A stretch of 42,514 nucleotides of DNA from Escherichia phage vB_EcoP_PAS7. Positions 5,481 to 20,448 of this stretch are shown in pieces. The stretch is taken from sequence record OQ921331.1; one strand, given 5' to 3'. The position numbers and the translations under genes are program-made. The notes beneath the pieces are model-generated. The model had not been told where the DNA came from, did no database searches, and worked only from the letters and a program-made list of their open reading frames with translations. Numbering within the stretch: position 1 is the stretch's first letter; each line of letters opens with the position of its first letter.

Positions 5481-6744
5481 TTTACTACGCGCTTTCTGTG
5501 AACGTAAGGTAATGGATAGGTTGTACGAACAGACGCCTAAGTCCTTGCTAGCACCTGATACGGTAGCGATGATTGGTTGGCTGCAACTGTACTTCGCAAC
5601 TTATCCTGACTCTAACGAAGTTAACTTTGAGATGATGAATACGCTCTTGGATATGCGAGGGACACATCTTCAGAAAGAGCAGCTGGATATTATGAAGCAT
5701 ATGCTTAAGACTATTCAGAACGTCCCTACTGAGCTTGTAGCAGGTACAGTTAAGACACTGAATGAGCTAGCTTACTCTGGCGAGATGGCTGCACTAGTGA
5801 GCAAGTATCAGGCAGGTGATGAAATAGATTTCGTACAGGAAGCTAAAGCACTTGAGCGTAAGTACTCTGGTGTAGTAGCTGCTAATGATTCATTACTTAA
5901 ATGGGAAGATGGAGGTGTAGATGATATTCTCGCGGCTACTGATGAGTCTGGTGGTCTTAAGCTTACTGTGTTCAGTGAGTTGGCTAGAAACATTCGCGGC
6001 TTGCGGGGTGGTGATTGTGTCGCTGTGGCTGCTCCTGTTGACGCTGGTAAAACTTCTCTCCTTGCTGCTGCAGTAGTTAGCTTAGCTGAGCAGATGCATG
6101 AGCAGAAGGAGATTTACGCGGAGCGTCCTATACTGTGGCTGGTAAATGAATCATTAGCCAAGCGCACTGTTCCTCGTATCTATCAGGCAGCTACTGGGCT
6201 GACTCTTCAGCAGATTGTAGAGCAGCATAAAGAAGGTAAGTTCGCTGATAAGTATCTGAAGAAGGTTGGGACGTGGGATAAGATTCGCGTTAAGGATGCG
6301 CACAGTATGAATCTGGGGCAGATTTCAACCTTACTGGAGGAAATGAAACCTGCTGTTCTAGTAGTAGATATGGTGAGTGGTATCAAGGGCGCGAATGCTG
6401 ACTCAGAACATCAGGCACTGGAGCGTACTTGGCAGGAACTGCGCATCTTAGGCTGTGAGCATGACTGTATTATCATTGGTAGTATGCAGCTATCGGCAGA
6501 AGGTTACGATATGCTCTATCCCCCACTGACTGCTATGAAGCAATCACGCATCGGAGTACAGGGTGCATTAGACCTTTGTATTATGATGGGAAGATTGAAT
6601 GTGAATGATAAGCCGGACATGGCTAACATTCGCGGAATCTCTACCCCAAAATCAAAATTAACTAAGTCCGGCTGTCAGAGCTATGTTCAATTTCAGGTTG
6701 AATTTGACGGAGGACGTTGTCAGTTTAAGGAGGGTACATTATGA
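5470..6744 (+). CDS. replicative DNA helicase (DnaB/T7 gp4-like)
   Basis: Walker A AAPVDAGKTSLL and Walker B-like LVVDMV; ORF track start 5458 is TTG, the ATG at 5470 has a GGAG RBS. Confidence 0.7.
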   Translation: MDFNLLRAFCERKVMDRLYEQTPKSLLAPDTVAMIGWLQLYFATYPDSNEVNFEMMNTLLDMRGTHLQKEQLDIMKHMLKTIQNVPTELVAGTVKTLNELAYSGEMAALVSKYQAGDEIDFVQEAKALERKYSGVVAANDSLLKWEDGGVDDILAATDESGGLKLTVFSELARNIRGLRGGDCVAVAAPVDAGKTSLLAAAVVSLAEQMHEQKEIYAERPILWLVNESLAKRTVPRIYQAATGLTLQQIVEQHKEGKFADKYLKKVGTWDKIRVKDAHSMNLGQISTLLEEMKPAVLVVDMVSGIKGANADSEHQALERTWQELRILGCEHDCIIIGSMQLSAEGYDMLYPPLTAMKQSRIGVQGALDLCIMMGRLNVNDKPDMANIRGISTPKSKLTKSGCQSYVQFQVEFDGGRCQFKEGTL

Positions 6745-7166
6745 GCGAATGTATAGAACATAACCAGAAGGGCAACAAAGCTGGTTACGGCAATGGTTAC
6801 TGGAACGGTGAACAGGTTATGCTTCACCGCTTAGCCTATTGCTTTAACAAGCAAATACCTGTAAGTGAAATTAAAGGTAGTGTAGTGATGCACACCTGTG
6901 ATAACCCTCGCTGCATTAACCCAACGCACTTACGCTTGGGTACTCAGGATGAAAACATGAAAGATATGCAAGGCAAGGGAAGGATGAGCCAGGGCAGTAA
7001 GCATTACATATCTAAACTTACTGAGGAGGATGTTAAGTACATACGTGAGAATTATATACCACGGCATCCAAAGTTTGGAGGTAAGGCGCTTGCTGCTAAG
7101 TTTGGTATAAATCCGGCATCCCTGTGTCAAATACGAAAAGGCCTACGCTGGAAATCCGTAAGCTAA
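6741..7166 (+). CDS. HNH endonuclease
   Basis: HNH-type motif HTCDNPRCINPTHLRLGTQDEN; AAGGAGGG RBS; sits between helicase and DNA polymerase. Confidence 0.65.
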   Translation: MSECIEHNQKGNKAGYGNGYWNGEQVMLHRLAYCFNKQIPVSEIKGSVVMHTCDNPRCINPTHLRLGTQDENMKDMQGKGRMSQGSKHYISKLTEEDVKYIRENYIPRHPKFGGKALAAKFGINPASLCQIRKGLRWKSVS

Positions 7167-7218
7167 TAGCTAAGCCGTCTTCTCAGGAGGGCGGCTTGTC
7201 GATTAACTGGGAGGAAGC

Positions 7219-7371
7219 ATGTTAAAGTCAGAAGACATTACAGAGCAGGACTACGAGGTTATCCGTGCGATAGCTAATAACCGTAAGCAGGTTAAACGCT
7301 ACACGCTGGATAGCAGTGAGATGATTGTACGAGCAGCACTTAACAGAGCACGGCGCGAGGGGTGGAAATGA
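7219..7371 (+). CDS. small hypothetical protein (50 aa)
   Basis: GGGAGGAAG RBS, ATG at 7219, stop TGA at 7369-7371 overlapping the DNA polymerase start. Confidence 0.35.
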   Translation: MLKSEDITEQDYEVIRAIANNRKQVKRYTLDSSEMIVRAALNRARREGWK

Positions 7372-8582
7372 GCAGCATACTGATTTGGGATATTGAAACG
7401 CAGAACGTACCTTACTATGGCGGGGTTGCTACACCTTACTGCCCAGATAACTACATTGTGGAATCAGGCTTCAGGATTGATAGAACTAATCCAGATGGTA
7501 CGGTGACGTGCAGTGATGTAGGTAGCGTGCGTTACGAGTCGCGGGAGGAGTTCATCTCAGCACCTAGTAGTCAGTGGTTGCCTATTCAGGACGATACTTG
7601 GTTAATGGTAATGCATAACGCCGCATATGAGATTAGCTGGGCGTTGACGTTTGCTAGGGAAGAGTTTGAAGCATTCCTGAAACGGGGAGGGCGCGTATTC
7701 GATACAATGCAAGGCGAGTACATTGCCTCAGACTTCCAAAACCTTTACCCATCATTAGATGAGACGGCTCCTAAGTACGGCGGCAGCCACAAGGTTGACG
7801 GCGTTAAACTGCTATGGCAGCAGGGCGTGTTAACAGCAGATATTGACCCTGTACTGCTGCATGAGTATCTAACAGGGCCAGAAGGTGATATCGTAAACAC
7901 AGCGTTATGCTTCTACGGGCAGTGTGCAGTGTTCGCTGAGCGTGGGCAGATGCCTATGGTCTGGGAAAGGATGGATAGTGTACTGGCCTTAGCCTACTGC
8001 GAGTTCAACGGTGTGTACGTAGACATGCCTACAGCCAGAGCTAACCAGAAGGAGCAGGAGGACGCTATAGCAGAGCTGAAGCAGACGCTGCAAGGCTTCT
8101 TACCTGAACTGCCTGAGGGATTTGAGTTCAACTGGAACAGCGGTTATCATATGAGTGCGTTGGTGTACGGCGGTACGGTTAAGTACAAGTGCAAGGTCCC
8201 GTATGACCCGCCAAAGTTTGTAAAGTTCGATGCCTACCTGGCCGATGTTAAGGGTACTCAGCAATACATAGATGTTAATGATTGGCAAGATAGCTGGACG
8301 TACAGCCGTGAAGTGTTTAAGTCTGGACGTAATAAAGGTCTGCCCAAAGTTTACAAGGTGGAAAGTTCAGAGCAGTCTATGAAGTGGGGTGAGCGCCTGT
8401 ATAAGTTCGAAGGGCTTGTGCACATCCAAGACCTACCAGCAGTATTGCAAGAGAAGTACGCAGAGCGCGGAGAGTTCCGAGGTGCTCAGACATTGGCAGA
8501 TGGTACACCTGTGTTCAGTACAGGGACTGATGCTATGAAAGAACTGGCTAACTATTTTATTGGGATGGAAGAGAATGAGTAA
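7368..8582 (+). CDS. DNA polymerase part I (3'-5' exonuclease domain and N-terminal polymerase region)
   Basis: Exo I motif IWDIETQN near the N-terminus; ends at TAA 8580-8582, overlapping the start of part II in another frame. Confidence 0.7.
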   Translation: MSSILIWDIETQNVPYYGGVATPYCPDNYIVESGFRIDRTNPDGTVTCSDVGSVRYESREEFISAPSSQWLPIQDDTWLMVMHNAAYEISWALTFAREEFEAFLKRGGRVFDTMQGEYIASDFQNLYPSLDETAPKYGGSHKVDGVKLLWQQGVLTADIDPVLLHEYLTGPEGDIVNTALCFYGQCAVFAERGQMPMVWERMDSVLALAYCEFNGVYVDMPTARANQKEQEDAIAELKQTLQGFLPELPEGFEFNWNSGYHMSALVYGGTVKYKCKVPYDPPKFVKFDAYLADVKGTQQYIDVNDWQDSWTYSREVFKSGRNKGLPKVYKVESSEQSMKWGERLYKFEGLVHIQDLPAVLQEKYAERGEFRGAQTLADGTPVFSTGTDAMKELANYFIGMEENE

Positions 8583-9729
8583 CAAGGCTTCGGAGTTCTT
8601 CAAGGCATACAGTGAGATGACCTTGCGTGAGAAAGATTTAGGCTTCTATGAGAAGAAGGAATTTAACAAGGACGGTAGCCTGCGTAAGACTACAGGTATG
8701 CTTCCGTATGTAATCCCTCAGAAGGAAGACGGCAGCGGCATCATTCATCACAGATTGAATCACTGCTCAACCACGACCGGACGACTATCAGCATCTAACC
8801 CGAATATGCAGCAGTTGCCGCGTGAATCTAAGGTTAAGCAGATTCTGCGTAGTCGTTACGGTGAGCAAGGTATGATTGCTCAGTGTGACTACTCAGCTAT
8901 GGAAGTTGTAATGGGCTGTGTAATAACAGGTGATAAGAAACTACTATCCTTGCTTGAAGCTGGTACAGATATGCACTGCTATCGTTTAGCATTCCAAGAG
9001 GGTATGCCTTATGAAGAAGTCTACGAGCTTTGCCATAACCCGGATGCACCTAACCATAAGGAATGGAAGAAGAAACGAACAGCAATCAAAACCTTCAGCT
9101 TCGCAGCGCAGTATGGAGCTTCCGCTAAAGGACTGGCGTTCGCCTCTGGTGCCAGCCTGAAGGACGCTGAGAAGTTCTTAGCTAACGAAGAAGCCCTGTT
9201 CCCTGAATCTATTAAGTACCGTGATGTAATTGCAGCAGAGGTAAATCGTACAGCACTGTTAGAGCCTATGCGCCGCGAGCAATCAGATGATGGTAGCTGG
9301 CGTATCTATCGGGAAGGCTATTTTACTGCTCCTTGTGGTACTCGTTACCGCTTCCGTCAGAAACCTGTATGGCGTGAAGGTAAGCAGGTCATGGACTTTA
9401 AACCTACAGAGATGGCTAACTATCCATTTCAAGGTTCAGGTTCTCTGCTTATGCTTATTGCGATGGGTATGATTCTGCGCGCAGGATTAGCTACGGATTG
9501 GGGTAACGGTAGTTGGTGCTTGTTAGCAACTGTACATGACTCCGTATATTGTGACTGTAAAGATGAGTCAACGGCGAGGGAAGTAGGTCAATTAATTAAG
9601 AAATGTATGGAAGGTGCAAGAGATAGAATGCTGCAACTTTGGCCTAACTTCGGAATACTACAGGACGTTAAATTCCCTGCCGAGTGTGGTATTGGTAAAT
9701 CATTTAAAGAGGAGCAGGTACTTGGCTAA
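8575..9729 (+). CDS. DNA polymerase part II (family A palm/fingers)
   Basis: Motif A CDYSAMEVV, motif B RTAIKTFSFAAQYGAS, motif C VHDSVYCD. ATG at 8575 is in the frame of ORF track 8560..9729. Confidence 0.7.
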   Translation: MSNKASEFFKAYSEMTLREKDLGFYEKKEFNKDGSLRKTTGMLPYVIPQKEDGSGIIHHRLNHCSTTTGRLSASNPNMQQLPRESKVKQILRSRYGEQGMIAQCDYSAMEVVMGCVITGDKKLLSLLEAGTDMHCYRLAFQEGMPYEEVYELCHNPDAPNHKEWKKKRTAIKTFSFAAQYGASAKGLAFASGASLKDAEKFLANEEALFPESIKYRDVIAAEVNRTALLEPMRREQSDDGSWRIYREGYFTAPCGTRYRFRQKPVWREGKQVMDFKPTEMANYPFQGSGSLLMLIAMGMILRAGLATDWGNGSWCLLATVHDSVYCDCKDESTAREVGQLIKKCMEGARDRMLQLWPNFGILQDVKFPAECGIGKSFKEEQVLG

Positions 9730-10225
9730 AGTTACTAAACCTATACCGGAAGGCATACGGGAATTTTGGAGATATGATTCTGAGAGTGGGAAATTAATAT
9801 GCATACAAAACATAAAGCGCACTAAGTACAGTGAAGGCATAGTTGCAGCTAGTCTTACAACTACAGGTAATTATCTAAAGCTGAATTTTAATAAGGTAAG
9901 CTACCTTCAGCATCGGGTAGCATGGTTCCTTTACTATAATGAACAACCTCCTGAAGTTATAGACCACAAGGACGGTAACGGCCTTAACAACGCTATAAAC
10001 AACCTGCGTGCTGCAGATGATGGTTGTAACATGATGGACATTACTGTAACTGCTAAATCCACTACAGGTATTAAAGGTGTCATGCCTGTACGGGGAGGTA
10101 AGCTGTTCCGTGCCGAAGTATGTGTAGATGGTAAGCGCTACCAGAAGCACAGCAAGGACGTAGCTTTCTTAGAGCAGTGGGTACAGGCTAAGCGTAAAGA
10201 ATTACACGGAGAGTTTTATAAATAG
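9722..10225 (+). CDS. HNH-AP2 homing endonuclease (paralog 1 of 3)
   Basis: HNH motif EVIDHKDGNGLNNAINNLRA followed by an AP2-like region; no in-frame ATG, likely TTG start at 9722 with an AAGAGGAG RBS; paralogous to 12767..13219 and 19681..20157. Confidence 0.6.
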   Translation: MAKVTKPIPEGIREFWRYDSESGKLICIQNIKRTKYSEGIVAASLTTTGNYLKLNFNKVSYLQHRVAWFLYYNEQPPEVIDHKDGNGLNNAINNLRAADDGCNMMDITVTAKSTTGIKGVMPVRGGKLFRAEVCVDGKRYQKHSKDVAFLEQWVQAKRKELHGEFYK

Positions 10226-10228
10226 CTG

Positions 10229-10257
10229 TTGACAAGCAGGGATGCTTTCCGTATAGT
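10229..10257. promoter_or_regulatory. sigma70-like promoter P3 (TTGACA-17-TATAGT)
   Basis: -35 at 10229-10234, 17-nt spacer, -10 at 10252-10257. Confidence 0.6.
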
Positions 10258-10344
10258 ACACACATCGACGAGGCAGGGAGCCAACCGGAAACGGTCAGTA
10301 GCGTCAGCAAGCATACGAAGAGCTGATAAGTATTAAGAAAGAGA

Positions 10345-10373
10345 TTGACAAGCAGTAACGAAGTAAGTAAGAT
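10345..10373. promoter_or_regulatory. sigma70-like promoter P4 (TTGACA-17-TAAGAT)
   Basis: -35 at 10345-10350, 17-nt spacer, -10 at 10368-10373; directly precedes element copy 3. Confidence 0.5.
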
Positions 10374-10379
10374 GTGCCA

Positions 10380-10510
10380 CATAGCAAGACGTTAACCGAG
10401 GACGATAAGCGGTTGCCCTTCTGAAGTCTCTGGGTAGATAAAACGAGACTGAACGGTTCCTCCCGTACACGGATAATTCAGTGTGATGCAGATGAGAGTC
10501 TAGGAGAAAT
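10380..10510 (+). ncRNA. candidate structured RNA element, copy 3 of 3
   Basis: AGACGTTAACCGAGGACGATAAGCGG...; hairpin stem AGTCTC 10425-10430 / GAGACT 10445-10450 with loop TGGGTAGATAAAAC; downstream block matches copy 2. Confidence 0.5.
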
Positions 10511-10589
10511 AAGACTCGCTAACTTAAGTAGGGTTAGTGATGCAGTCTTCAGAGATTGCAGCCTTAACTTTATTAATAGGAGGTAGTAG

Positions 10590-10778
10590 ATGAAAGTAAG
10601 AATCATCAATCACGATGCTTATGGTCCTTTCTTAACTGATACATGTAAGGAACTGTACGCAGTAGGTACAGTGCATGAAGTACAAGATTTCTTCCCTGAC
10701 ACGGGGGAGGTTATCTTAGGGTATGAAGATGAAGGATTTACCTTTGATCCATCAGAGTATGAAGTTGTGGAGGAGTAG
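10590..10778 (+). CDS. hypothetical small acidic protein
   Basis: ORF track, 62 aa; AGGAGG RBS; followed by a terminator. Confidence 0.5.
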   Translation: MKVRIINHDAYGPFLTDTCKELYAVGTVHEVQDFFPDTGEVILGYEDEGFTFDPSEYEVVEE

Positions 10779-10782
10779 GTGT

Positions 10783-10809
10783 AGCCCTGCGTAGGAAGGG
10801 CTTTATTAT
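10783..10809 (+). terminator. rho-independent terminator
   Basis: Stem AGCCCT 10783-10788 / AGGGCT 10797-10802, then TTATTAT. Confidence 0.5.
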
Positions 10810-10866
10810 AGCACGAATGCTGAGATTTGTACAGTAATAAATTAATTATTTACATAAGGGTTAAAT

Positions 10867-11612
10867 ATGAACTATTTAGATATCTGCGAGAAGTACAATG
10901 TAGGAAGCCTGCGCGACGCTAACCTGCGCGACGCTGACCTGTACGGCGCTAACCTGTACGGCGCTGACCTGCGCGACGCTAACCTGTACGGCGCTAACCT
11001 GTGCGGCGCTGACCTGCGCGACGCTAACCTGTACGGCGCTAACCTGTGCGGCGCTGACCTGCGCGGCGCTAACCTGCGCGGCGCTAACCTGCGCGGCGCT
11101 AACCTGTACGGCGCTAACCTGCGCGGCGCTAACCTGCGCCTAACCTGCGCGGCGCTAACCTGTACGGCGCTAACCTGCGCGGCGCTAACCTGCGCGGCGC
11201 TAACCTGTGCGGCGCTAACCTGTGCGGCGCTAACCTGCGCGGCGCTAACCTGCGCGGCGCTAACCTGTACGGCGCTAACCTGCGCGACGCTAACCTGCGC
11301 GACGCTGACCTGTGCGGCGCTGACCTGCGCGACGCTGACCTGTGCGGCGCTAACCTGCGCGGCGCTGACCTGCATGGGACTGACTTGATTGTAATTTATG
11401 GGGAACAGTACTTTATTAGCCTATACAAGGGAACAGTACGCGCAGGTTGTCAGTCGCATACGATAGCGGAGTGGCGAAGTTTTAGTAAGGAAGAAGTAAT
11501 TGCTATGGACGGGCGTAATTCTCTTAAATACTACCCACGTCTTTTAGACATCATTGATTTTTACTGTGGTAAGGGCGAGCGTCCTGATTGGGTAATGAAA
11601 ATAAACAAGTAA
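10867..11612 (+). pseudogene. pentapeptide-repeat protein, frame disrupted at about 11139-11141 by a 4-nt indel in the tandem-repeat region
   Basis: Frame 1 reads A(D/N)LXX pentapeptide repeats ([15 protein letters not shown]...) up to 11139. The repeat unit AACCTGCGCGGCGCT is shortened to AACCTGCGCCT at 11131-11141; the repeat frame continues in another frame to the stop at 11612, with a non-repeat C-terminal domain (ORF track 11385..11612). Confidence 0.55.
10921..11370. repeat. tandem 15-bp repeat array (about 30 units, consensus AACCTGCGCGGCGCT)
   Basis: Direct reading: 15-nt units with variants GAC/AAC, TAC/TGC/CGC and GGC/GAC; one truncated unit near 11131-11141. Confidence 0.9.
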
Positions 11613-11696
11613 ATAAACTATTGACTTCTTCCAGTAAGTATGAAACTTGCTGGATAGAAGTATCACTATAAGATAACACTACAAGGATTAAACAAT

Positions 11697-12683
11697 ATGC
11701 CGCGCATCAATGCCATTAAACTCTTCACTAAAGAACAGCACCAAGAAATTCTGAGCAAGTATAAATCAAACGCTGAGGCAGCAGCAGCATACAACGCAGC
11801 ATCTGGTTTAGATGAACCTGTGGCTTATCGTCAGCTTGTTAAGTACTGGCGCAGAATCTACGAAGCAGCTAATGGCAGTAAAGCGAAAGCTAATAAAGGG
11901 CTGGTTGAAGCGCGTAAGCTAATACAACCTTCCCCTACAGATGATATCGGTAATACTGATGTTCCTGACATGTGTCGCCGTATTCTTGTCATTGGTGACC
12001 TGCACGCTCCTTACACCCACCCTGATGCCCTCGATTTCCTTCGTTCTGTCCGAGACAGTTACGGTCCTGACATGGTTGTTCAGGTAGGTGACGAGACTGA
12101 CGGGCACGCTATTAGCTTCCATGACTCTGACCCGGACTTGGATAGCGCAGGTGTTGAACTTGAGAAAGCTAAGCAGTATCTAGCTAAGGTGCATGACCTG
12201 TTCCCTAACCTGCTGGTGTGCGACTCGAACCACGGTAGCTTGGTGTACCGCCGCGCTAAAGCGCATGGCCTGCCAGTACAGTTCATTAAAAAGTACCGCG
12301 ATATCCTGTTCCCAGAACACGGTGCTAAGAAGTGGAGCTGGTCAGACGCTTGGGTATTGAATACTCCGACCGGACCAGTACGCTTCCAACATCAAGTATC
12401 TGGTGACCTTATGCTGAACGCTTCGCATGAACGCACCAGCATGGTAATCGGTCACCACCATGCGTTATACGATATTAAGTATGCAGCAAGCAGCACGGCA
12501 TTGTACTTCGGTGCGCATGCAGGTTGCTTGATTGACCACAAAGCTATGGCCTTTGCTTACGGTAAGCTGACTCGTAATAAGCCTATCCTCGGTGTAATGA
12601 CTATTACCGAAGGATGTCCTAGTCTGATTCCTATGCTACTGGATGCGGAAGGACGTTGGGTTAATCGTAAGAAGAAACGCTAA
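11697..12683 (+). CDS. calcineurin-like metallophosphoesterase
   Basis: Metallophosphatase motifs VIGDLH, GDETDGH and DSNHGS. Confidence 0.6.
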   Translation: MPRINAIKLFTKEQHQEILSKYKSNAEAAAAYNAASGLDEPVAYRQLVKYWRRIYEAANGSKAKANKGLVEARKLIQPSPTDDIGNTDVPDMCRRILVIGDLHAPYTHPDALDFLRSVRDSYGPDMVVQVGDETDGHAISFHDSDPDLDSAGVELEKAKQYLAKVHDLFPNLLVCDSNHGSLVYRRAKAHGLPVQFIKKYRDILFPEHGAKKWSWSDAWVLNTPTGPVRFQHQVSGDLMLNASHERTSMVIGHHHALYDIKYAASSTALYFGAHAGCLIDHKAMAFAYGKLTRNKPILGVMTITEGCPSLIPMLLDAEGRWVNRKKKR

Positions 12684-12766
12684 GCCTACATAAGCAGCTT
12701 AAAAATGCATTACCAGCACGAGCGGGGAACACCTCGCCGTGTAATCAAACTACTTAAGGAAACGTA

Positions 12767-13219
12767 ATGACTGAAGAGTTAATACGCGAATACCTTGCGC
12801 TAGACCCTTCTAGTCCTACTAATCTGAAGTGGATTAAGACTTCTGGCAGCCGGGTTAAGTTAGGGTCTGTGCAAGGTTATCTAAACTCGCATGGTTATGT
12901 TAAGGTTAAACTCAAAGGAAAGGCGCTGTCGCTGCATCGCGCAGTGTTCTTATTACATTATGGATACCTTCCATATGAGGTAGATCATGTAAATAGGGAT
13001 AAGACTGATAACAGACCTGATAATCTTAGAGCAGCAACTAGAAGCTCTAACTGCCATAATAAGAACTGCACGGGATTTAACTTTGATAAGAAGTCACAGA
13101 AGTTTAGAGTCCGTGTGCAAGTAACTACCACTAAGCGAATTACTGTAGGCTGGTATGATAGTCCATTTGAGGCTAGGGCAGCTTACTTAACGTTCAAAAC
13201 AGCTAACAATCTAATCTAA
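12767..13219 (+). CDS. HNH-AP2 homing endonuclease (paralog 2 of 3)
   Basis: EYLALDPSSPTNLKWIK N-terminus, HNH motif VDHVNRDKTDNRPDNLRA, AP2-like C-terminus; close paralog of 19681..20157. Confidence 0.65.
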   Translation: MTEELIREYLALDPSSPTNLKWIKTSGSRVKLGSVQGYLNSHGYVKVKLKGKALSLHRAVFLLHYGYLPYEVDHVNRDKTDNRPDNLRAATRSSNCHNKNCTGFNFDKKSQKFRVRVQVTTTKRITVGWYDSPFEARAAYLTFKTANNLI

Positions 13220-13230
13220 GGAACTACATT

Positions 13231-14034
13231 ATGACTATTAACTTATCCTCTCTGAACTCCCTTGTTAACTCTACTGTAGAAGCTCAAGGTATTGACCAGT
13301 CTGTTACCCAGAGCGGAGGTAATTTTGCAGACGTGTTACTTCCGCGTGGAAGCTACTATGGTCGTTTCATGGAGTACATCGAGCTGGGTAAAAAGATTCC
13401 TATGCACATGGGTAAACCTACTGGTAAGCCTGCTGTAATGAACGTGCGTTTAGGCTTCATCGTCTACACCCCAGACGGCAGCATTAAGCGTATCAACCCG
13501 TTCCCGATGGCTATCAGCAGCTTCGAGAAGGCTAAATTCAAGCAAGTGTTCGATAAGATGAACTACGACGGCACTCTGAAGCACATGGCCCAGCGTTTGG
13601 GTCAGGCGTTCATGTTCGAAGTTGAGCAGTACACTTCTAAGACTGGCAAGACTTCTAACACTATCGACTTCCTGAGTCTGCGCCAGCTGCCTAAGTTTGA
13701 CCCGAATACTGGCGCACCGATTGAACTGCCTGCACTGGATGAATCCGGTCTGCGTCTGTTCCTGTTCGACAACCCGACCAAAGAAACTTGGGATAGTCTG
13801 CACATTGAGAAGAACAACTTCATTCAGGAAGATATCCTGCAAGCTGTGAACTTTGAAGGCTCTGCATTGCAGCAGATGCTTATGGGCGGTGTTCCTGATA
13901 TGGCAGCAATGGCTGCGCCAGCTGCTGCTCCTGCAGCACCTGTAGCTCTGACTGCTCCGGCTGCACCTGCTGCCCCCATGACAGCTCCAGTGGCCCCGGC
14001 TATGCCAGCAGCACCAGTTGCACCAGCTATCTAA
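13231..14034 (+). CDS. hypothetical protein with Ala/Pro-rich C-terminal tail
   Basis: 267 aa; C-terminal 40 aa are AP-rich low complexity (AAPAAAPAAPVALTAPAAPAAPMTAPVAPAMPAAPVAPAI). Function not assignable from sequence. Confidence 0.5.
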   Translation: MTINLSSLNSLVNSTVEAQGIDQSVTQSGGNFADVLLPRGSYYGRFMEYIELGKKIPMHMGKPTGKPAVMNVRLGFIVYTPDGSIKRINPFPMAISSFEKAKFKQVFDKMNYDGTLKHMAQRLGQAFMFEVEQYTSKTGKTSNTIDFLSLRQLPKFDPNTGAPIELPALDESGLRLFLFDNPTKETWDSLHIEKNNFIQEDILQAVNFEGSALQQMLMGGVPDMAAMAAPAAAPAAPVALTAPAAPAAPMTAPVAPAMPAAPVAPAI

Positions 14035-14046
14035 TAAACTCGACCA

Positions 14047-14068
14047 ACGCCCCGCAAGGGGCTTTTAA
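14047..14068 (+). terminator. rho-independent terminator (GNRA-loop hairpin plus T run)
   Basis: GCCCC-GCAA-GGGGC at 14049-14062 followed by TTTT. Confidence 0.5.
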
Positions 14069-14081
14069 TAAGGATTAAGAA

Positions 14082-14465
14082 ATGACTGTAGAAATTGCAC
14101 AGACTAAAGAAGTACTGAAGACCTTCCAAGAAGTAGCAAGCGCAGTAGCTAGCTTTATCGTATCTCTGGATTCAGATGAAGCGGTATCGGTGCAGCCTAT
14201 TAAGAAAGCTATCGTAAAGCTGGCTGAGCAGTACGGCGCAGACTTCGGCATCGTAGAGAAAGAGATGCGAGAGAACAACGATATTGCAGCTAAGTCTGAA
14301 GAGTTACTAGATGACCCGCTGGTTTACGTACGCATTGCTGGTACATTAAACTCACATGTAGGTAATCTTGCAGCAGTAATCTACGACGTAGAGCAATCTG
14401 CAATGGGCATTGAAGTTATGGGCAACCTGCTCGGTACGGTTCTGATTCTGGAAGAGGCATACTAA
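14082..14465 (+). CDS. hypothetical protein
   Basis: ORF track, 127 aa; RBS-like AAGGATTAAGAA upstream. Confidence 0.5.
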   Translation: MTVEIAQTKEVLKTFQEVASAVASFIVSLDSDEAVSVQPIKKAIVKLAEQYGADFGIVEKEMRENNDIAAKSEELLDDPLVYVRIAGTLNSHVGNLAAVIYDVEQSAMGIEVMGNLLGTVLILEEAY

Positions 14466-14466
14466 T

Positions 14467-15387
14467 ATGATGATTGGCGGCGTTAATCTAGATACTCTGG
14501 CGGTTCAACTAGAGACGCCGCCAGTCTCTGATAAGGTACTGCTGTTAGATGCAGACCAGCATATATACAAAGCCGCTAGTACTGTTAAGCGGCTTGATAC
14601 TGCAATACGTAGGTTTTACCAGTCAGTACTAGAGGAGAAATTCTATGTTAACACTAAAGAAGTTCGGGCCTACATTACGCCTTCTAATAACTTTAAGTGC
14701 GGACGTTTCCTACTACCGACCGTTAAGCCCTATCAACAACAACGTTCAACTAGAGAAGAGCTACCTCTCAAGGCCCCACTTAAAGAACATCTTATCGCTA
14801 ATCCGCATGAATACGCAGCGCAAGGTATAGAAATTGTATTCGATTACTTAGCTGAAGCGGATGACCGTATCATAGAAGACAGCATTGAGTTCGGAGAGCG
14901 AGGTGTAGTTAGCAGCTTCGATAAAGATATGAATCTGTGCAGAGGTCCTAAGTGGAATCCCGAGCTGGGCACTATCGACACTATTGATAACGAGTACGGT
15001 TGGATAGATTACAATAAGGATAAAGGTAAGATTGTAGGACATGGCACAGCATTTTTCTGGGCGCAGATGCTAATGGGTGATACTGCTGACAACGTCAAAG
15101 GTATTCAAACTTTAAACGGTAAATCTTGCGGTCCGGCTAAGGCTTACGAGTTCTTAAAGGACTTCACAGATTCGACCAACTCAGCTAGGGCAGTAGTCCT
15201 AGCTTACGCTGAAATTAACCAGAACTTCCTAGCCGAGGCTGAATGCCTATGGCTGCACAGAAACAAAGATGATTCAGCATTCAAGTACATACACCCTTTG
15301 TTAGACGACGAGCTTCAGAAGTGGTGCGAGTCTCTACATTCCTACAACGAGGATTACAAAGCATGGCGACTTTCAACGCAGCAGTAG
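14467..15387 (+). CDS. 5'-3' exonuclease (FEN/T7 gp6-like)
   Basis: H3TH-like motif GDTADNVKGIQTLNGKSCGPAKA; position between replication genes and endonuclease. Confidence 0.65.
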   Translation: MMIGGVNLDTLAVQLETPPVSDKVLLLDADQHIYKAASTVKRLDTAIRRFYQSVLEEKFYVNTKEVRAYITPSNNFKCGRFLLPTVKPYQQQRSTREELPLKAPLKEHLIANPHEYAAQGIEIVFDYLAEADDRIIEDSIEFGERGVVSSFDKDMNLCRGPKWNPELGTIDTIDNEYGWIDYNKDKGKIVGHGTAFFWAQMLMGDTADNVKGIQTLNGKSCGPAKAYEFLKDFTDSTNSARAVVLAYAEINQNFLAEAECLWLHRNKDDSAFKYIHPLLDDELQKWCESLHSYNEDYKAWRLSTQQ

Positions 15388-15557
15388 AAGCAATCGTGGA
15401 ACTGTACTTCAAAGAAGAGTTCGCAGAGATGGAAGCTAAGCTGTCTGACTTGTACGATGTAAGTCCTGAGTTGTACAGACAAGCGCAGGTTAAGCTAGAA
15501 GATTTGATTGCAGAGCAACATTGCTTAGATGAAGGTGAGGAGCTTGATTTATGGTAA
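15363..15557 (+). CDS. hypothetical small acidic protein
   Basis: In frame with ORF track 15321..15557; ATG at 15363. Confidence 0.35.
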   Translation: MATFNAAVEAIVELYFKEEFAEMEAKLSDLYDVSPELYRQAQVKLEDLIAEQHCLDEGEELDLW

Positions 15558-15976
15558 TGCGTAAGGTTACACGTGCACAGTTAAGAAGCATCACTATGAA
15601 ACTGGCTAAGGAGCAGGGAGGTAACTGCCTGCTCTGCGGCGAGCCTTTGGACTTCTCAATTAAAGGGGCTAAAGGTGATAGCGTTGTTTGTGACCATGAC
15701 CATATTACTGGACGTATTCGTGGGGCATTGCACAGGTCGTGCAATGGGGGTGAGGGGAAAGTGGCGTCCGCTTGCGGTAGGTGGATTGTTGGTAGTATGG
15801 GTAGCAGTGCTGCTATCGCCAATGCTCTGCGCAATATGGCTGACTACTTAGAGCGTGAACCTACTGACTTCATTTATCCTACGCACAAAACAGAAGAAGA
15901 GAAGCGCCTAGCAGCTAACGCTAAGGCACGTAAGGCTAGGGCAACCCGTAAGGCAGCACAGGAGATTAAGAAATGA
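15551..15976 (+). CDS. endonuclease VII-like Holliday junction resolvase
   Basis: Motif CLLCGEPLD...VCDHDHITGRIRGALHRSCN matches the T4 endonuclease VII family pattern. Confidence 0.65.
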   Translation: MVMRKVTRAQLRSITMKLAKEQGGNCLLCGEPLDFSIKGAKGDSVVCDHDHITGRIRGALHRSCNGGEGKVASACGRWIVGSMGSSAAIANALRNMADYLEREPTDFIYPTHKTEEEKRLAANAKARKARATRKAAQEIKK

Positions 15977-16413
15977 GTGATGAATTAGAGATAGGTCGTG
16001 AGTATACTTGGGGATCTGGGGCATGTACATATGTTCGTGATGAGTATGGGATTTGGTGTTTAAGAGACAAGGGTCATAGGCTCAGTAAGGACAGGGCAGC
16101 AGAGCATATTAAATATGCTACCAGTTACAGTAAGTTCCGCTATTTGAATGATGGGAAAGCTGCGGGTCGTCTTAATGTTGACGACGTACGCAAACCTTCA
16201 CATTACCAAGTATTCCCGGACGTAGAGAGTATTGAGATTATCGCACGTAGCATGACGCAAGCAGAGTTCAAAGGCTTCTGCCTCGGTAATGTTCTGAAGT
16301 ACCGACTGCGTGCAGGTAAGAAGTCTGAACTTGCTACAATGGAGAAGGACCTGAAGAAGGCCGACTTTTATAAAGAACTGTTCGAACAGCATAAGGGTAA
16401 ATGCTATGAGTAA
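15973..16413 (+). CDS. DUF3310-like phage protein
   Basis: C-terminal pattern HYQVFP...GNVLKYRLRAGKK...DLKKADFY resembles the DUF3310 signature (recalled). Confidence 0.4.
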   Translation: MSDELEIGREYTWGSGACTYVRDEYGIWCLRDKGHRLSKDRAAEHIKYATSYSKFRYLNDGKAAGRLNVDDVRKPSHYQVFPDVESIEIIARSMTQAEFKGFCLGNVLKYRLRAGKKSELATMEKDLKKADFYKELFEQHKGKCYE

Positions 16414-16576
16414 GAAGATTATCGCAGTGATTGAACTTCAGACTGAAGATTTAGATTTAGCTGAGGAGTTCATGCAGAATCTGTTTCAAGCAGGTGCAGA
16501 TTACGGTCACGTCCGTAAAGATTATGATTTCTACCTGATGGAAGGCGACAACGAGTTCGTAGAGGTATTACATTGA
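16406..16576 (+). CDS. small hypothetical acidic protein (56 aa)
   Basis: ATG at 16406, stop TGA at 16574-16576; found by manual translation. Confidence 0.3.
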   Translation: MSKKIIAVIELQTEDLDLAEEFMQNLFQAGADYGHVRKDYDFYLMEGDNEFVEVLH

Positions 16577-16698
16577 TGTGCAGTGAATGGTGTATGGCAC
16601 GCTGGACTGAAGCAATTGAAGCAGGTAACGAAGCAGCAGCTAAAGACTATCAAGAACTTTACGTGCTCTGGAAAGAGCGCGAAGATAAAGCTAAGTAA
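16576..16698 (+). CDS. small hypothetical protein (40 aa)
   Basis: ATG overlaps the upstream stop; MCSEWCMARWTEAIEAGNEAAAKDYQELYVLWKEREDKAK. Confidence 0.25.
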   Translation: MCSEWCMARWTEAIEAGNEAAAKDYQELYVLWKEREDKAK

Positions 16699-16745
16699 AC
16701 AAATTATTAACCTCAGATACGCCAAGACTAGCGAGAGGGCATCAA

Positions 16746-19196
16746 ATGAAACACGAATCATTAGAACAGAAAGTAGAACGTCAGGTACAGCTAGAGAAGG
16801 ATTACCGTACACGTAGCCTGAATAAGTCACGTGAGCTTGTACAGAAAGCTATGCAAGCTGGTAATCTTTCAAGCCTGCCTAAGGTATCTCGTATGATTGC
16901 AGCTGCTTACGACACCGTAGCAGCAGGCATTGACGAGATGAAGGCAGAGAAAACAGCAGGCGTAGGCGGCAAGTACCGCAGCGTTATACGTCTGGTTCCT
17001 ACGGATGTACTGACCGTGATGACTTTAACTAAGTGTTTCGATGCCCTCTTTGTATCTGAAGGCGGCAGCTCTCGCGTGAGTGCTGGTACTCTGCTGGCTA
17101 ATATTGGTCGTCAGGTACAGGCAGAAGTCCTAAGCATTCAGCTTGAGACTGTAGCACCTGCATACATGAACCGAGTGTTCGAGTACTTGAAAGAACGTAA
17201 TACTACCAGCCCTTCCCACATCATGAAGACACTGCGCGCTTCAGCTGAGAATGTGCACTTAGGGCATGAGCCGTGGAGCAACTCTCAATGTGTAGCGGTA
17301 GGTAAGCTCCTGCTTCAACCAGCTTGGGAGACGGGCCTGTTCCAGTGGGATAAGGCTACCGATGCCACCCGCATGTCCTACCTTGCACCTGCACCTGAAT
17401 TAGCCGAGCACTTGCAAGAACTGGTAGAAGATGCAGATACAGTAGATATCAAGCCGCCTATGCTGGTTAAGCCTAACCGCCACGATACACTGTTCTCCGG
17501 CGGTTACCTGCTCCCTTCTACCTGTAAGCGTGGTACTTATCACAACCGCCAGATTACTCGCAGCATGAAGCGCGATGTGTCTGACGCATTCAAGGAAGCG
17601 ACTGAACTTAAGTCTGCTCTGAATAAGTCTCAAGAAGTTCCTTACGTAATTAACAAGCAGATTCTTAACCTGATTAATGAGGCGCGTCGTACTGGAGTAA
17701 CTGCCGGTATGCCCAGCGCTTTCCCTGCTCCTAAACCTGAATGGTATCTGGACGGTGTACCTAAAGAAGAGTACACAGAGCGTCAGATGGATGACTTCCA
17801 AACTTGGAAGATGAACATGCGCAACTGGTACATCAATGAGCGTGCAAGGGTAAGTAAGCTGCGTTCCTTGATTTCACTGGTTCAGATTTGCGAAGAGTTT
17901 AAAGATGAAGAAGAGCTGTACTTCCCAACCTGCGTTGACTGGCGCTACCGTCTGTACTTCAAATCAAGCCTGCATCCTCAAGGTTCTGACATGCAAAAAG
18001 CTCTGCTGTCCTTCGGTCGGGCAAAGCCTCTGGGAGAGCGGGGTCTGTTTTGGCTCAAGGTACACGTCGCTACCTGCTATGGTTATGATAAGGCCTTATT
18101 CGAAAAGCGTGCAGCTTGGACTGATGCTAATATCGAGCAGATTCGACTTGTCGCATCAAGTCCGTTTAATGCAGAGGCTTTTAAAAGTGCCGACAGTCCG
18201 TGGTGTTTTCTGGCTGCCTGCATCGACCTCGTTGCTGCTCTTGACTCTGAAAGCCCAGAGCTTTACGAATCGCGGCTTCCGGTGGCTATGGATGCAACCA
18301 ACTCTGGCAGCCAGCACTTCTCAGCTCTACTGCGTGACCCAGTAGGCGGTAAACTTACTAACCTGTTCTGGGAAGGTAACGAAGAGAAAGCGGATATGTA
18401 CATGGACGTTAAGCAGCGTACTGATGCTAAGGTCATCATGGACTTGGACAATCCTGAGTTCGTAGTACAGGCTCAGTTCTGGCGTGAGAACGAGATTACT
18501 CGTAGCATGACCAAGCGCCCTTGCATGACACACGTATACTCTGCAACTGTTCGCTCGTGCTCTGAGTACATCCTCCAGTCTGCGCAGGAGGAAGGCTACG
18601 AAGGCACTGAGGAGTACAGCCTGTTCAAGCTGGCAGGTTACCTGAGTGGACGTATGAAGGCGGCGGTAGAGGACGCTAACCCAGCGGCTACAGCAGCAAT
18701 GAAGTACCTGCAATCCCTGTGCTATAAAGTTCCGGCAGCCAATCACCTGCAATGGAAGACTCCGCTAGGTGGTCTGGTTATTAATCGTTACACTGAGTCT
18801 GAAGAGACTACAGTCAAGGTTAAGAGCATGAACTTATCGCACCTGCTTATCTATAACCGTAACTACGATGTAAACAACAAGCGTAAGGCTAAGTCAGGTA
18901 TCTCCCCTAACTGGATTCACAGCTTAGATGCCACGCACTTGATGATGACTATTAATGCGTTCGAAGGTGATATCATGCCTATTCACGATTCAGTAGCTAC
19001 ACATGCTTGTGATGTAGATGTAATGCAGAAGGCAGTACGCGAGCAGTTCGTGCGCCTGTACACTGAGCACGATGTACTGCAAGAGATTACTGACGCAGCC
19101 GTAGAATGCGGCGCTGACTTGGAAGGTTTAGAAATGCCTGTTAAAGGTAATCTTAATATCCAATTAGTGAAGGAATCCCCGTTCTTCTTCTGCTGA
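16746..19196 (+). CDS. single-subunit DNA-dependent RNA polymerase (T7 RNAP family)
   Basis: 816 aa; DATNSGSQHFSALLRD matches the T7 RNAP catalytic motif DGSCSGIQHFSAMLRD; NWIHSLDATHLMM matches motif C. Placement before the structural genes is typical of phiKMV-like phages. Confidence 0.9.
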   Translation: MKHESLEQKVERQVQLEKDYRTRSLNKSRELVQKAMQAGNLSSLPKVSRMIAAAYDTVAAGIDEMKAEKTAGVGGKYRSVIRLVPTDVLTVMTLTKCFDALFVSEGGSSRVSAGTLLANIGRQVQAEVLSIQLETVAPAYMNRVFEYLKERNTTSPSHIMKTLRASAENVHLGHEPWSNSQCVAVGKLLLQPAWETGLFQWDKATDATRMSYLAPAPELAEHLQELVEDADTVDIKPPMLVKPNRHDTLFSGGYLLPSTCKRGTYHNRQITRSMKRDVSDAFKEATELKSALNKSQEVPYVINKQILNLINEARRTGVTAGMPSAFPAPKPEWYLDGVPKEEYTERQMDDFQTWKMNMRNWYINERARVSKLRSLISLVQICEEFKDEEELYFPTCVDWRYRLYFKSSLHPQGSDMQKALLSFGRAKPLGERGLFWLKVHVATCYGYDKALFEKRAAWTDANIEQIRLVASSPFNAEAFKSADSPWCFLAACIDLVAALDSESPELYESRLPVAMDATNSGSQHFSALLRDPVGGKLTNLFWEGNEEKADMYMDVKQRTDAKVIMDLDNPEFVVQAQFWRENEITRSMTKRPCMTHVYSATVRSCSEYILQSAQEEGYEGTEEYSLFKLAGYLSGRMKAAVEDANPAATAAMKYLQSLCYKVPAANHLQWKTPLGGLVINRYTESEETTVKVKSMNLSHLLIYNRNYDVNNKRKAKSGISPNWIHSLDATHLMMTINAFEGDIMPIHDSVATHACDVDVMQKAVREQFVRLYTEHDVLQEITDAAVECGADLEGLEMPVKGNLNIQLVKESPFFFC

Positions 19197-19255
19197 ACAT
19201 TAATTAAACAGTCATGCCCTCAGAGGTATGACTATAAGATACAGGGGTAGCAACC

Positions 19256-19684
19256 ATGAGCAATACATTAAACACAGCACAATACACAACACATCTCTAC
19301 AATTGGAACAACTCTTCTGATTACATAATCAGCATTGTTAAACAATTGCATGTATGGGGTATTGGTATCCAGTTAGGAATGGATGAGGAAGAGCATTTCC
19401 AGAAGGTTGTGCAAGAGATACAAGGACACAGTGTATTAGCAGTATTCAGCGGTGATGAGCTAATCGGAGGCGTAAGTATTATTCCTCAGTTATTAGAGAA
19501 TAGTCATTATACAGGTAAGAGTATGGCTACAGGATTTATGGTAGTCGAGCCTTATCACCCTAAAGCAGTTGCTACGCTCTACAGGAATTTAAAACGAATC
19601 GTTCGGGAGAACGGTGCAGACTGGCTTATATTCACACGTGCAGTATCTGACGTGGATTACTTACAGAAGGGGATTAAGCTTTGA
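19256..19684 (+). CDS. hypothetical protein
   Basis: ORF track, 142 aa. Confidence 0.45.
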   Translation: MSNTLNTAQYTTHLYNWNNSSDYIISIVKQLHVWGIGIQLGMDEEEHFQKVVQEIQGHSVLAVFSGDELIGGVSIIPQLLENSHYTGKSMATGFMVVEPYHPKAVATLYRNLKRIVRENGADWLIFTRAVSDVDYLQKGIKL

Positions 19685-20157
19685 AAGGTATTGAAGAATA
19701 CATAGCTTTAGACCCAAGTAGCCCTACGTATCTTAGCTGGATTAAGGCACCTCTTAGAGGACGTGTTAAAGTCGGCGAGCCGGCATTAATTTCCTTAAGC
19801 AAGACTAATTACTATCGTGGGAAGTTTCAGCAAAAGAACCTGCTTGCGCATCGCGTGGTGTACTACCTCGCTACTGGAATTGAACCTCCAGCAATGCTAG
19901 ACCATACAGACGGTAACAGGCAGAACAACAACCCAGATAACTTAAGGGCAGTAACTGCTCGAGAGAACAATCACAATAGGCATGCATGTAAAGGCTACCA
20001 CTGGCGAAGTAACAGAAATCACTGGTGCGCTCAGATACATGTAGATGGGAAGGAGATATACCTAGGCTCCTTTCAAACTGAAGCGGAAGCTAGGGCAGCT
20101 TATCTAGAAGGTAAGCGGATATACCACCCAAGTGCACCGGTACATTTACTTAACTAA
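19681..20157 (+). CDS. HNH-AP2 homing endonuclease (paralog 3 of 3)
   Basis: TTG start overlapping the upstream stop, AAGGGG RBS; EYIALDPSSPTYLSWIK, HNH motif LDHTDGNRQNNNPDNLRA, AP2-like C-terminus. Confidence 0.6.
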   Translation: MKGIEEYIALDPSSPTYLSWIKAPLRGRVKVGEPALISLSKTNYYRGKFQQKNLLAHRVVYYLATGIEPPAMLDHTDGNRQNNNPDNLRAVTARENNHNRHACKGYHWRSNRNHWCAQIHVDGKEIYLGSFQTEAEARAAYLEGKRIYHPSAPVHLLN

Positions 20158-20226
20158 CATAGCGCCTTCGGGCGGGAGGGTAGCATCATCGGCGGGATTA
20201 AGAAAGCATTATCATCAGTTACAGAT

Positions 20227-20448
20227 TTGGTTGGATTGACTGATACAGCGGCGCTGGAAGCACAGCAGAAGGCGGCGCGTGAACAACAGGAAGCACTGCA
20301 AGCGCAGGCAGCTCTGGATAACGATCAGTCTGGAGAAAATCTCACGCAGGTTGAATCTGGTGGTGCAGCTAATGCATCCGGTGCATCTATTACAGCAGAC
20401 CAGCGCAAGCGCCGTCAGGGTGCAGCATCAACTGCCTTAGGTATCTAA
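20227..20448 (+). CDS. hypothetical protein (start uncertain)
   Basis: ORF track starts at TTG; the frame is open back to the HNH stop at 20157 with no ATG. Confidence 0.3.
   Translation: MVGLTDTAALEAQQKAAREQQEALQAQAALDNDQSGENLTQVESGGAANASGASITADQRKRRQGAASTALGI

Follow-up and report, generated by a model that had tools for sequence, protein, structure and literature searches.

Our analysis suggests, with a probability that we put at about 0.8, that four genes of Escherichia phage vB_EcoP_PAS7 (OQ921331.1), here called HNH1 to HNH4, are free-standing homing endonuclease genes, each situated between other genes within the replication/transcription module. The window analyzed is the complete genome of 42,514 bp, and PAS7 is the type phage of the genus Cepavirus within the Slopekvirinae (KP34-like podophages), according to the PAS7 paper; the words HNH, homing and endonuclease are absent from that paper, which leaves the HNH genes unmentioned, and GenBank labels HNH1 "HNH endonuclease motif protein" and both HNH2 and HNH3 "hypothetical protein". 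The domains, the intact catalytic residues, purifying selection, the precision of the insertions, and their presence or absence with site fidelity across relatives all support our reading. The presence/absence of precise insertions is the pattern expected of selfish homing endonuclease genes, and it is ordinary for this phage group. A preliminary description of this DNA had reported four open reading frames (ORFs) of this kind; all of them are present, on the + strand, and are listed here with their predicted protein class (lengths in amino acids, aa) and their setting:

6741–7166, + strand: HNH4, a 141-aa zinc-loop HNH gene at the junction of the helicase gene and DNA polymerase part I, with an ATG start overlapping the stop codon of the helicase gene (ATGA).
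9722–10225, + strand: HNH1, a 167-aa HNH-AP2 gene directly after DNA polymerase part II, with a TTG start and an 8-nt overlap with the polymerase stop.
12767–13219, + strand: HNH2, a 150-aa HNH-AP2 gene at the junction of the phosphoesterase gene and orf13231.
19665–19680, + strand: the last codons of orf19256, which hold a Shine-Dalgarno-like sequence for HNH3.
19681–20157, + strand: HNH3, a 158-aa HNH-AP2 gene inserted where orf19256 ends and followed by orf20227 and the portal gene, with a TTG start that overlaps the orf19256 stop (TTGA).

The preliminary description had already noticed the two TTG starts that overlap upstream stops, and it placed HNH1 correctly. It had HNH2 immediately after the phosphoesterase gene, but HNH2 begins 83 nt past the phosphoesterase stop; it also had HNH3 follow the gene for RNA polymerase (RNAP; 16746–19196), but a 142-aa ORF, orf19256 (19256–19684), stands between the two.

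Our comparison covered nine relatives, each a genome or a contig and several of them incomplete: Escherichia phage P64441 (L001); Salmonella phage S.Kent 1-2-1 (L002/L004), of which ECO104 4-5-2 is a near-twin; the more distant phiKDA1 (L003); two IMG/VR contigs (L005 and L006); and four assembly contigs (L012, L013, L014 and L015). The occupancy of each junction was read from blastn maps and from the gene lists of the relatives, with the following result (identities are those of the orthologue to the PAS7 gene):

HNH4 site (helicase/polymerase): filled in PAS7 and P64441 (81% aa); empty in S.Kent, L013 and L015.
HNH1 site (after polymerase part II): filled in PAS7, S.Kent (69% aa), L013 (72%) and L015; empty in P64441 and L005.
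HNH2 site (phosphoesterase/orf13231): filled in PAS7 and L014 (76% aa, 80% nt); empty in P64441, S.Kent, L005, L006, L013 and L015.
HNH3 site (orf19256/orf20227): filled in PAS7 and L012 (73% aa); empty in P64441, S.Kent, L005, L006, L013 and L015.

At every junction, at least one other, diverged genome carries an orthologue of the PAS7 gene, and all four junctions are polymorphic, so that the related phages do not carry identical genes at identical sites. This sporadic occupancy, together with the precise insertions described below, supports the proposal in the preliminary description that the genes are selfish, free-standing homing endonucleases. No annotated relative examined has an HNH gene at the HNH2 or the HNH3 junction, and the only occupied examples outside PAS7 come from two metagenomic contigs; of the variable sites in the module, which number at least seven, four are filled in PAS7 and at most two in any close relative examined. 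Some relatives have HNH genes where PAS7 has none: before the exonuclease gene in P64441 (L001 10887–11408) and in phiKDA1, there with AP2 (PAS7 position 14465/14467); inside the polymerase gene of S.Kent; before endonuclease VII in L015, as an extra HNH_3 gene (15652–16095); and between the scaffold and capsid genes of phiKDA1. A search of all six-frame ORFs of the PAS7 genome with a hidden Markov model of the family matched only the four known genes and found no fifth HNH gene. Endonuclease VII of PAS7 (15551–15976) is a further His-Me nuclease, a core gene that is conserved in the relatives covering that region.

The same distribution bears on the possibility that the four proteins are domesticated nucleases or DNA-binding regulators that help the phage, by attacking competitor or host DNA or through transcription control by AP2, and that they are no longer mobile. 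Purifying selection, translational coupling to essential genes, and the divergence of orthologue pairs, which reaches or exceeds that of their flanks and suggests long residence, are all compatible with such a role, and the co-option of homing endonuclease DNA-binding domains has been described (PMC10448857). However, for each gene there are several close relatives that do without it and keep the empty site intact, no two relatives carry an identical set, and the catalytic residues, which a pure regulator would not need, are all kept; we therefore regard domestication as unlikely.

Junction alignments show that the inserted DNA amounts to approximately the ORF alone, against 8–95 bp at the empty sites of relatives, and that the flanking genes are intact. 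Window positions 6726–7342, which include HNH4, correspond to 95 bp in S.Kent; positions 12740–13198, at HNH2, correspond to 8 bp in L005; and HNH1 takes the place of 24 bp between the polymerase stop and a sigma-70-like promoter. HNH2 uses the ancestral ribosome-binding site (RBS) of orf13231, and a re-created RBS spans the stop codon of HNH2 itself; the HNH2 orthologue in L014 shows this duplicated-RBS arrangement too. At HNH3, homology to the empty-site genomes ends at the TTG start (19681) and returns at the last two codons (AAC TAA), which are the ancestral end of orf19256 in P64441. Upstream of this start, the two HNH3-positive genomes read AAG GGG ATT, whereas the four aligned empty-site genomes read AAA GGT ATC; the changes are synonymous and give a better Shine-Dalgarno sequence for HNH3, and they may have travelled with the gene or may shield its carrier from cleavage. 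Automatic marking of the substitutions that separate filled from empty HNH3 sites returned almost nothing, as the alignment breaks at the junction, and the three synonymous changes were recognized by eye; because the genomes are too few, no HNH3 target site is called from these flank changes. The HNH3 junction of L013 holds an unrelated 68-aa ORF (19351–19557). A conserved GC hairpin, GCCTTCGGGC, follows HNH3 (20158–20190); it is also present in P64441, L012 and L013, and S.Kent and L005 are without it.

No promoter-like site was found directly upstream of any of the four HNH genes, and all four are therefore probably co-transcribed with their neighbours. Each would be read through from the gene upstream: three starts overlap the upstream stop, and HNH2 borrows the RBS of the downstream gene. 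The genes are not within an intron or an intein, as they are located between ORFs and have their own starts and stops, and Rfam models detected no intron or other RNA family between window positions 6500 and 20600. A packaging-associated role, as for an HNH protein beside terminase, was ruled out by position, all four genes being in the replication/transcription module. Immediately downstream of HNH1 (10229–10373) are two strong sigma-70-like promoters (TTGACA-17-TATAGT, 11 of 12 positions matched; TTGACA-17-TAAGAT, 10 of 12); this pair is accompanied by repeated TTGACAAGCAG motifs and lies in a 360-bp non-coding stretch that is kept in L005.

All four proteins score above the Pfam gathering cut-off for HNH_3 (PF13392, 24.8 bits), with 32.9 bits for HNH1, 56.6 for HNH2, 52.2 for HNH3 and 28.5 for HNH4; HNH4 additionally matches zf-His_Me_endon (31.0 bits; cut-off 27). 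In PHROGs, the best family is phrog_99 for HNH1, HNH2 and HNH3 (E 1e-40 to 6e-45) and phrog_6254 for HNH4 (E 7e-29). A profile of the HNH3 family matches I-HmuI (PDB 1U3E) over its N-terminal two thirds (E 1.4e-12), and in its last 50 residues it matches the plant AP2 domains of WRI1 (E 2e-6) and TEM1 (E 0.005). The AlphaFold models of HNH1 to HNH3 agree with these matches: the N-terminal sheet and HNH motif resemble those of I-HmuI, with a beta-beta-alpha-metal fold like that of a solved HNH endonuclease; the C-terminus resembles plant AP2/ERF domains, with a three-stranded sheet packed on a helix and superposable on solved AP2 domains; and the predicted folds are confident (pLDDT 89–93). The Pfam AP2 threshold (PF00847, 33.3 bits) is not reached, since only HNH3 matches (16.5 bits) and HNH1 and HNH2 give no match at E <= 0.1, and AP2 membership therefore rests on profile and fold evidence. 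These comparisons support a predicted architecture for HNH1 to HNH3 in which an I-HmuI-like N-terminal beta-sheet and HNH motif are followed by a C-terminal AP2 DNA-binding domain. They also uphold the HNH/AP2 fold and the N-terminal and HNH modules that the preliminary description saw as shared by these three ORFs, which contain the peptides it quoted, EYLALDPSSPTNLKWIK and EYIALDPSSPTYLSWIK.

The catalytic residues are intact. D74, H75, N87 and N96 are invariant in the alignment of the HNH3 family and align to D74-H75...N87...N96 of I-HmuI, which the I-HmuI structure paper is said to identify as the general base and the metal ligands; the equivalents in the HNH1 family (D81, H82, N94 and N103) are kept. 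HNH4, which the preliminary description had set apart as a different HNH between helicase and polymerase, has an H...N...H...N pattern and a Cys-containing zinc loop, shows no BLAST similarity to HNH3, and gave no match to PDB sequences in a phmmer search; it is a zinc-loop HNH protein with a different C-terminal tail.

The preliminary description called HNH1, HNH2 and HNH3 paralogous, which holds in the sense of one family but not in the sense of duplicates arisen within this genome. HNH2 and HNH3 are 40% identical over 143 aa, their full length (E 2e-27); HNH1 resembles HNH3 (34% over 89 aa) and HNH2 (30% over 94 aa) in the N-terminal and HNH parts only. No significant nucleotide similarity was found among the three genes, the best blastn match being 51 nt at 75%, and this rules out recent duplication or gene conversion among them. 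In a ranking of distances, the nearest neighbour of each PAS7 gene is the orthologue at its own site; the next nearest of HNH1 and HNH3 are proteins of other phages, and HNH2 is about equally distant from all others, including HNH3. Among non-syntenic proteins, HNH3 comes closest to those of Pectobacterium and Klebsiella podophages, with 47–50% identity (vs. 40% to HNH2). The HNH1 lineage adjoins the polymerase gene at 53–54% aa identity in Klebsiella phage KpV48 and many Pectobacterium phages, and the HNH4 lineage stands upstream of the polymerase gene in Klebsiella phages (44–46%). The common architecture and the N-terminal sequence ALDPSSPT shared by HNH2 and HNH3 could be taken to mean that the three HNH-AP2 genes were duplicated within PAS7 and spread to new junctions by ectopic recombination. 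We consider this extremely improbable: pairwise identity is only 30–40%; HNH1 and HNH3 clearly have nearer relatives in other phages, as HNH2 does in its orthologue alone; and the orthologues at the three junctions belong to different relatives, in which the other two genes are missing. Judged from their sequences, HNH1, HNH2 and HNH3 are separate lineages and not in-genome or recent duplicates.

Between orthologues, nonsynonymous divergence (dN) is 0.14–0.22, about twice that of the flanking genes (0.05–0.13); synonymous divergence (dS) exceeds 1 or is saturated, and is not computable for HNH3 and HNH4, so that dN/dS is only rough and the usable statement is that dN lies far below dS. Because of this difference, we conclude that the HNH proteins are maintained by purifying selection. 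It also argues against the notion that the genes are inactive relics, left by earlier invasions and on their way to being lost. Amino-acid change at about twice the rate of the neighbours would suit such relics, as would the orthologue identities of only 69–81% aa and the lack of near-identical copies in unrelated contexts; but all four reading frames are full length, the D-H...N...N residues are intact, and the predicted folds are confident. Decay of this kind is, in our view, very unlikely.

Several points nevertheless weigh against the homing endonuclease interpretation. The set of relatives is small; the Pfam AP2 model stays below threshold; dS is saturated, which leaves dN/dS rough; and no very recent transfer is visible among orthologues, at 69–81% protein identity, so that the genes may be long-standing residents that have lost their mobility. 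Nuclease activity, cleavage, target location, current mobility and marker exclusion are inferences on our part.

For mobile genes of this type, homing would proceed as follows. PAS7 would co-infect a cell with a relative that carries an empty site; the endonuclease would bind a long asymmetric site, within the conserved flanking gene of that relative or close to it, and would nick or cut it there; and repair by recombination with the PAS7 copy would then carry over the endonuclease gene along with flanking markers. A strand-specific nick is plausible for HNH_3 enzymes by homology with I-HmuI. Across the polymerase block, from the HNH4 site to the HNH1 site, PAS7 and S.Kent are 86–94% identical, compared with 70–84% in the flanking genes, and no such rise occurs in the other relatives; this pattern fits nuclease genes at the boundaries of sequence exchange (PMC10448857), and as a single case it is no proof. 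We offer only tentatively, and with some doubt, the idea that the endonuclease genes mark, and maybe create, boundaries of exchanged modules in Cepavirus-like phages, with PAS7 as a possible tractable system for co-conversion and marker exclusion.

Several neighbouring features were observed alongside the HNH genes. In S.Kent 1-2-1, a group I intron (L004 20199–20885; Rfam RF00028, 51 bits, E 3e-11) with a 180-aa HNH_3 ORF splits DNA polymerase part II within the conserved ...SASNPN|MQQLPR... motif, at the equivalent of window position 8801/8802. The PAS7 polymerase gene is the intron-less allele, with 48 of 60 and 55 of 60 bases identical on the two sides of the S.Kent intron site, and it may be a target of the intron endonuclease. 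The family-A DNA polymerase (7362–9729) is itself encoded by two overlapping genes, with the stop and start at 8576–8582 as ATGAGTAA; relative to the single-chain polymerase of phiKDA1, the break comes near residue 393, and P64441, S.Kent, L013 and L015 share it. Neither an intron nor an endonuclease was found at the split point, which may be the scar of an old insertion.

In the small pre-portal gene (window 20185–20448), coding conservation reaches upstream of the listed TTG (20227) to ATC ATC GGC GGG, after GGAGGG; S.Kent and L005 have ATG GGC GGG at the equivalent place, and the gene of PAS7, P64441, L012 and L013 may have a non-canonical ATC start or may encode a shorter protein. A GC-rich pentapeptide-repeat ORF at 10867–11388 is composed of tandem DNA repeats and has a long mirror ORF on the opposite strand; in P64441, pentapeptide-repeat proteins are annotated at the equivalent place and at a second position. 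The PAS7 phosphoesterase gene (11697–12683) has no nucleotide match in S.Kent, where a 394-aa ORF stands (L004 23241–24425), and a DNA methyltransferase gene is located upstream of RNAP in P64441 and phiKDA1 but not in PAS7.

The free-standing homing endonuclease genes of phage T4, Seg and Mob, are intergenic, stand beside conserved genes, occur sporadically in relatives and are expressed within neighbouring transcription units, a pattern that the PAS7 genes share. The two systems differ in their enzymes and have no sequence relation beyond the HNH motif: Seg proteins are GIY-YIG enzymes, unlike the HNH proteins of PAS7, and in Mob proteins the partner of HNH is a zinc finger instead of AP2 (PMC10448857). 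I-HmuI, the solved structure matched by the HNH3 family, is encoded in a group I intron of the DNA polymerase gene of Bacillus phage SPO1, whereas the PAS7 genes are free-standing; its C-terminus consists of helical and helix-turn-helix DNA-binding modules, in place of which the three PAS7 proteins have AP2. In the HNH-AP2 homing endonuclease family, which includes the IPA-HNH genes of Vibrio phage ICP1, an N-terminal HNH is followed by a C-terminal AP2 as in PAS7, and the genes stand beside essential genes and at boundaries of sequence exchange, also as in PAS7; the ICP1 IPA-HNH domains are too divergent for Pfam HNH_3 (PMC10448857), whereas all the PAS7 genes pass.

Members of the PAS7 protein family are found at 42–54% aa identity in related podophages: Pectobacterium phage CB5, which has five HNH genes, and other Phimunavirus; the Klebsiella KP34-like Drulisvirus; and Enterobacter phage phiKDA1. 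Their genomes of about 42–45 kb carry several HNH copies each, with occupancy varying among the primase, helicase, polymerase and endonuclease VII genes, but the occupied junctions and the lineages differ from those of PAS7. More broadly, tblastn places the family in about 1,800–2,500 phage records, often with multiple copies per genome. HNH-AP2 homing endonucleases of cyanobacteria, ciliates and phages (Magnani et al. 2004, as cited in PMC10448857), the clustering of homing endonuclease genes by essential genes (PMC10448857), and podophage genomes with multiple HNH genes have all been described, and PAS7 adds little that is new to them.

In conclusion, the value of these observations lies in annotation and in the design of phage cocktails. 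The presence/absence matrix supplies defined empty-site alleles for cleavage assays, and the HNH genes, if active, could bias recombination and marker inheritance in mixes of PAS7 with related phages.

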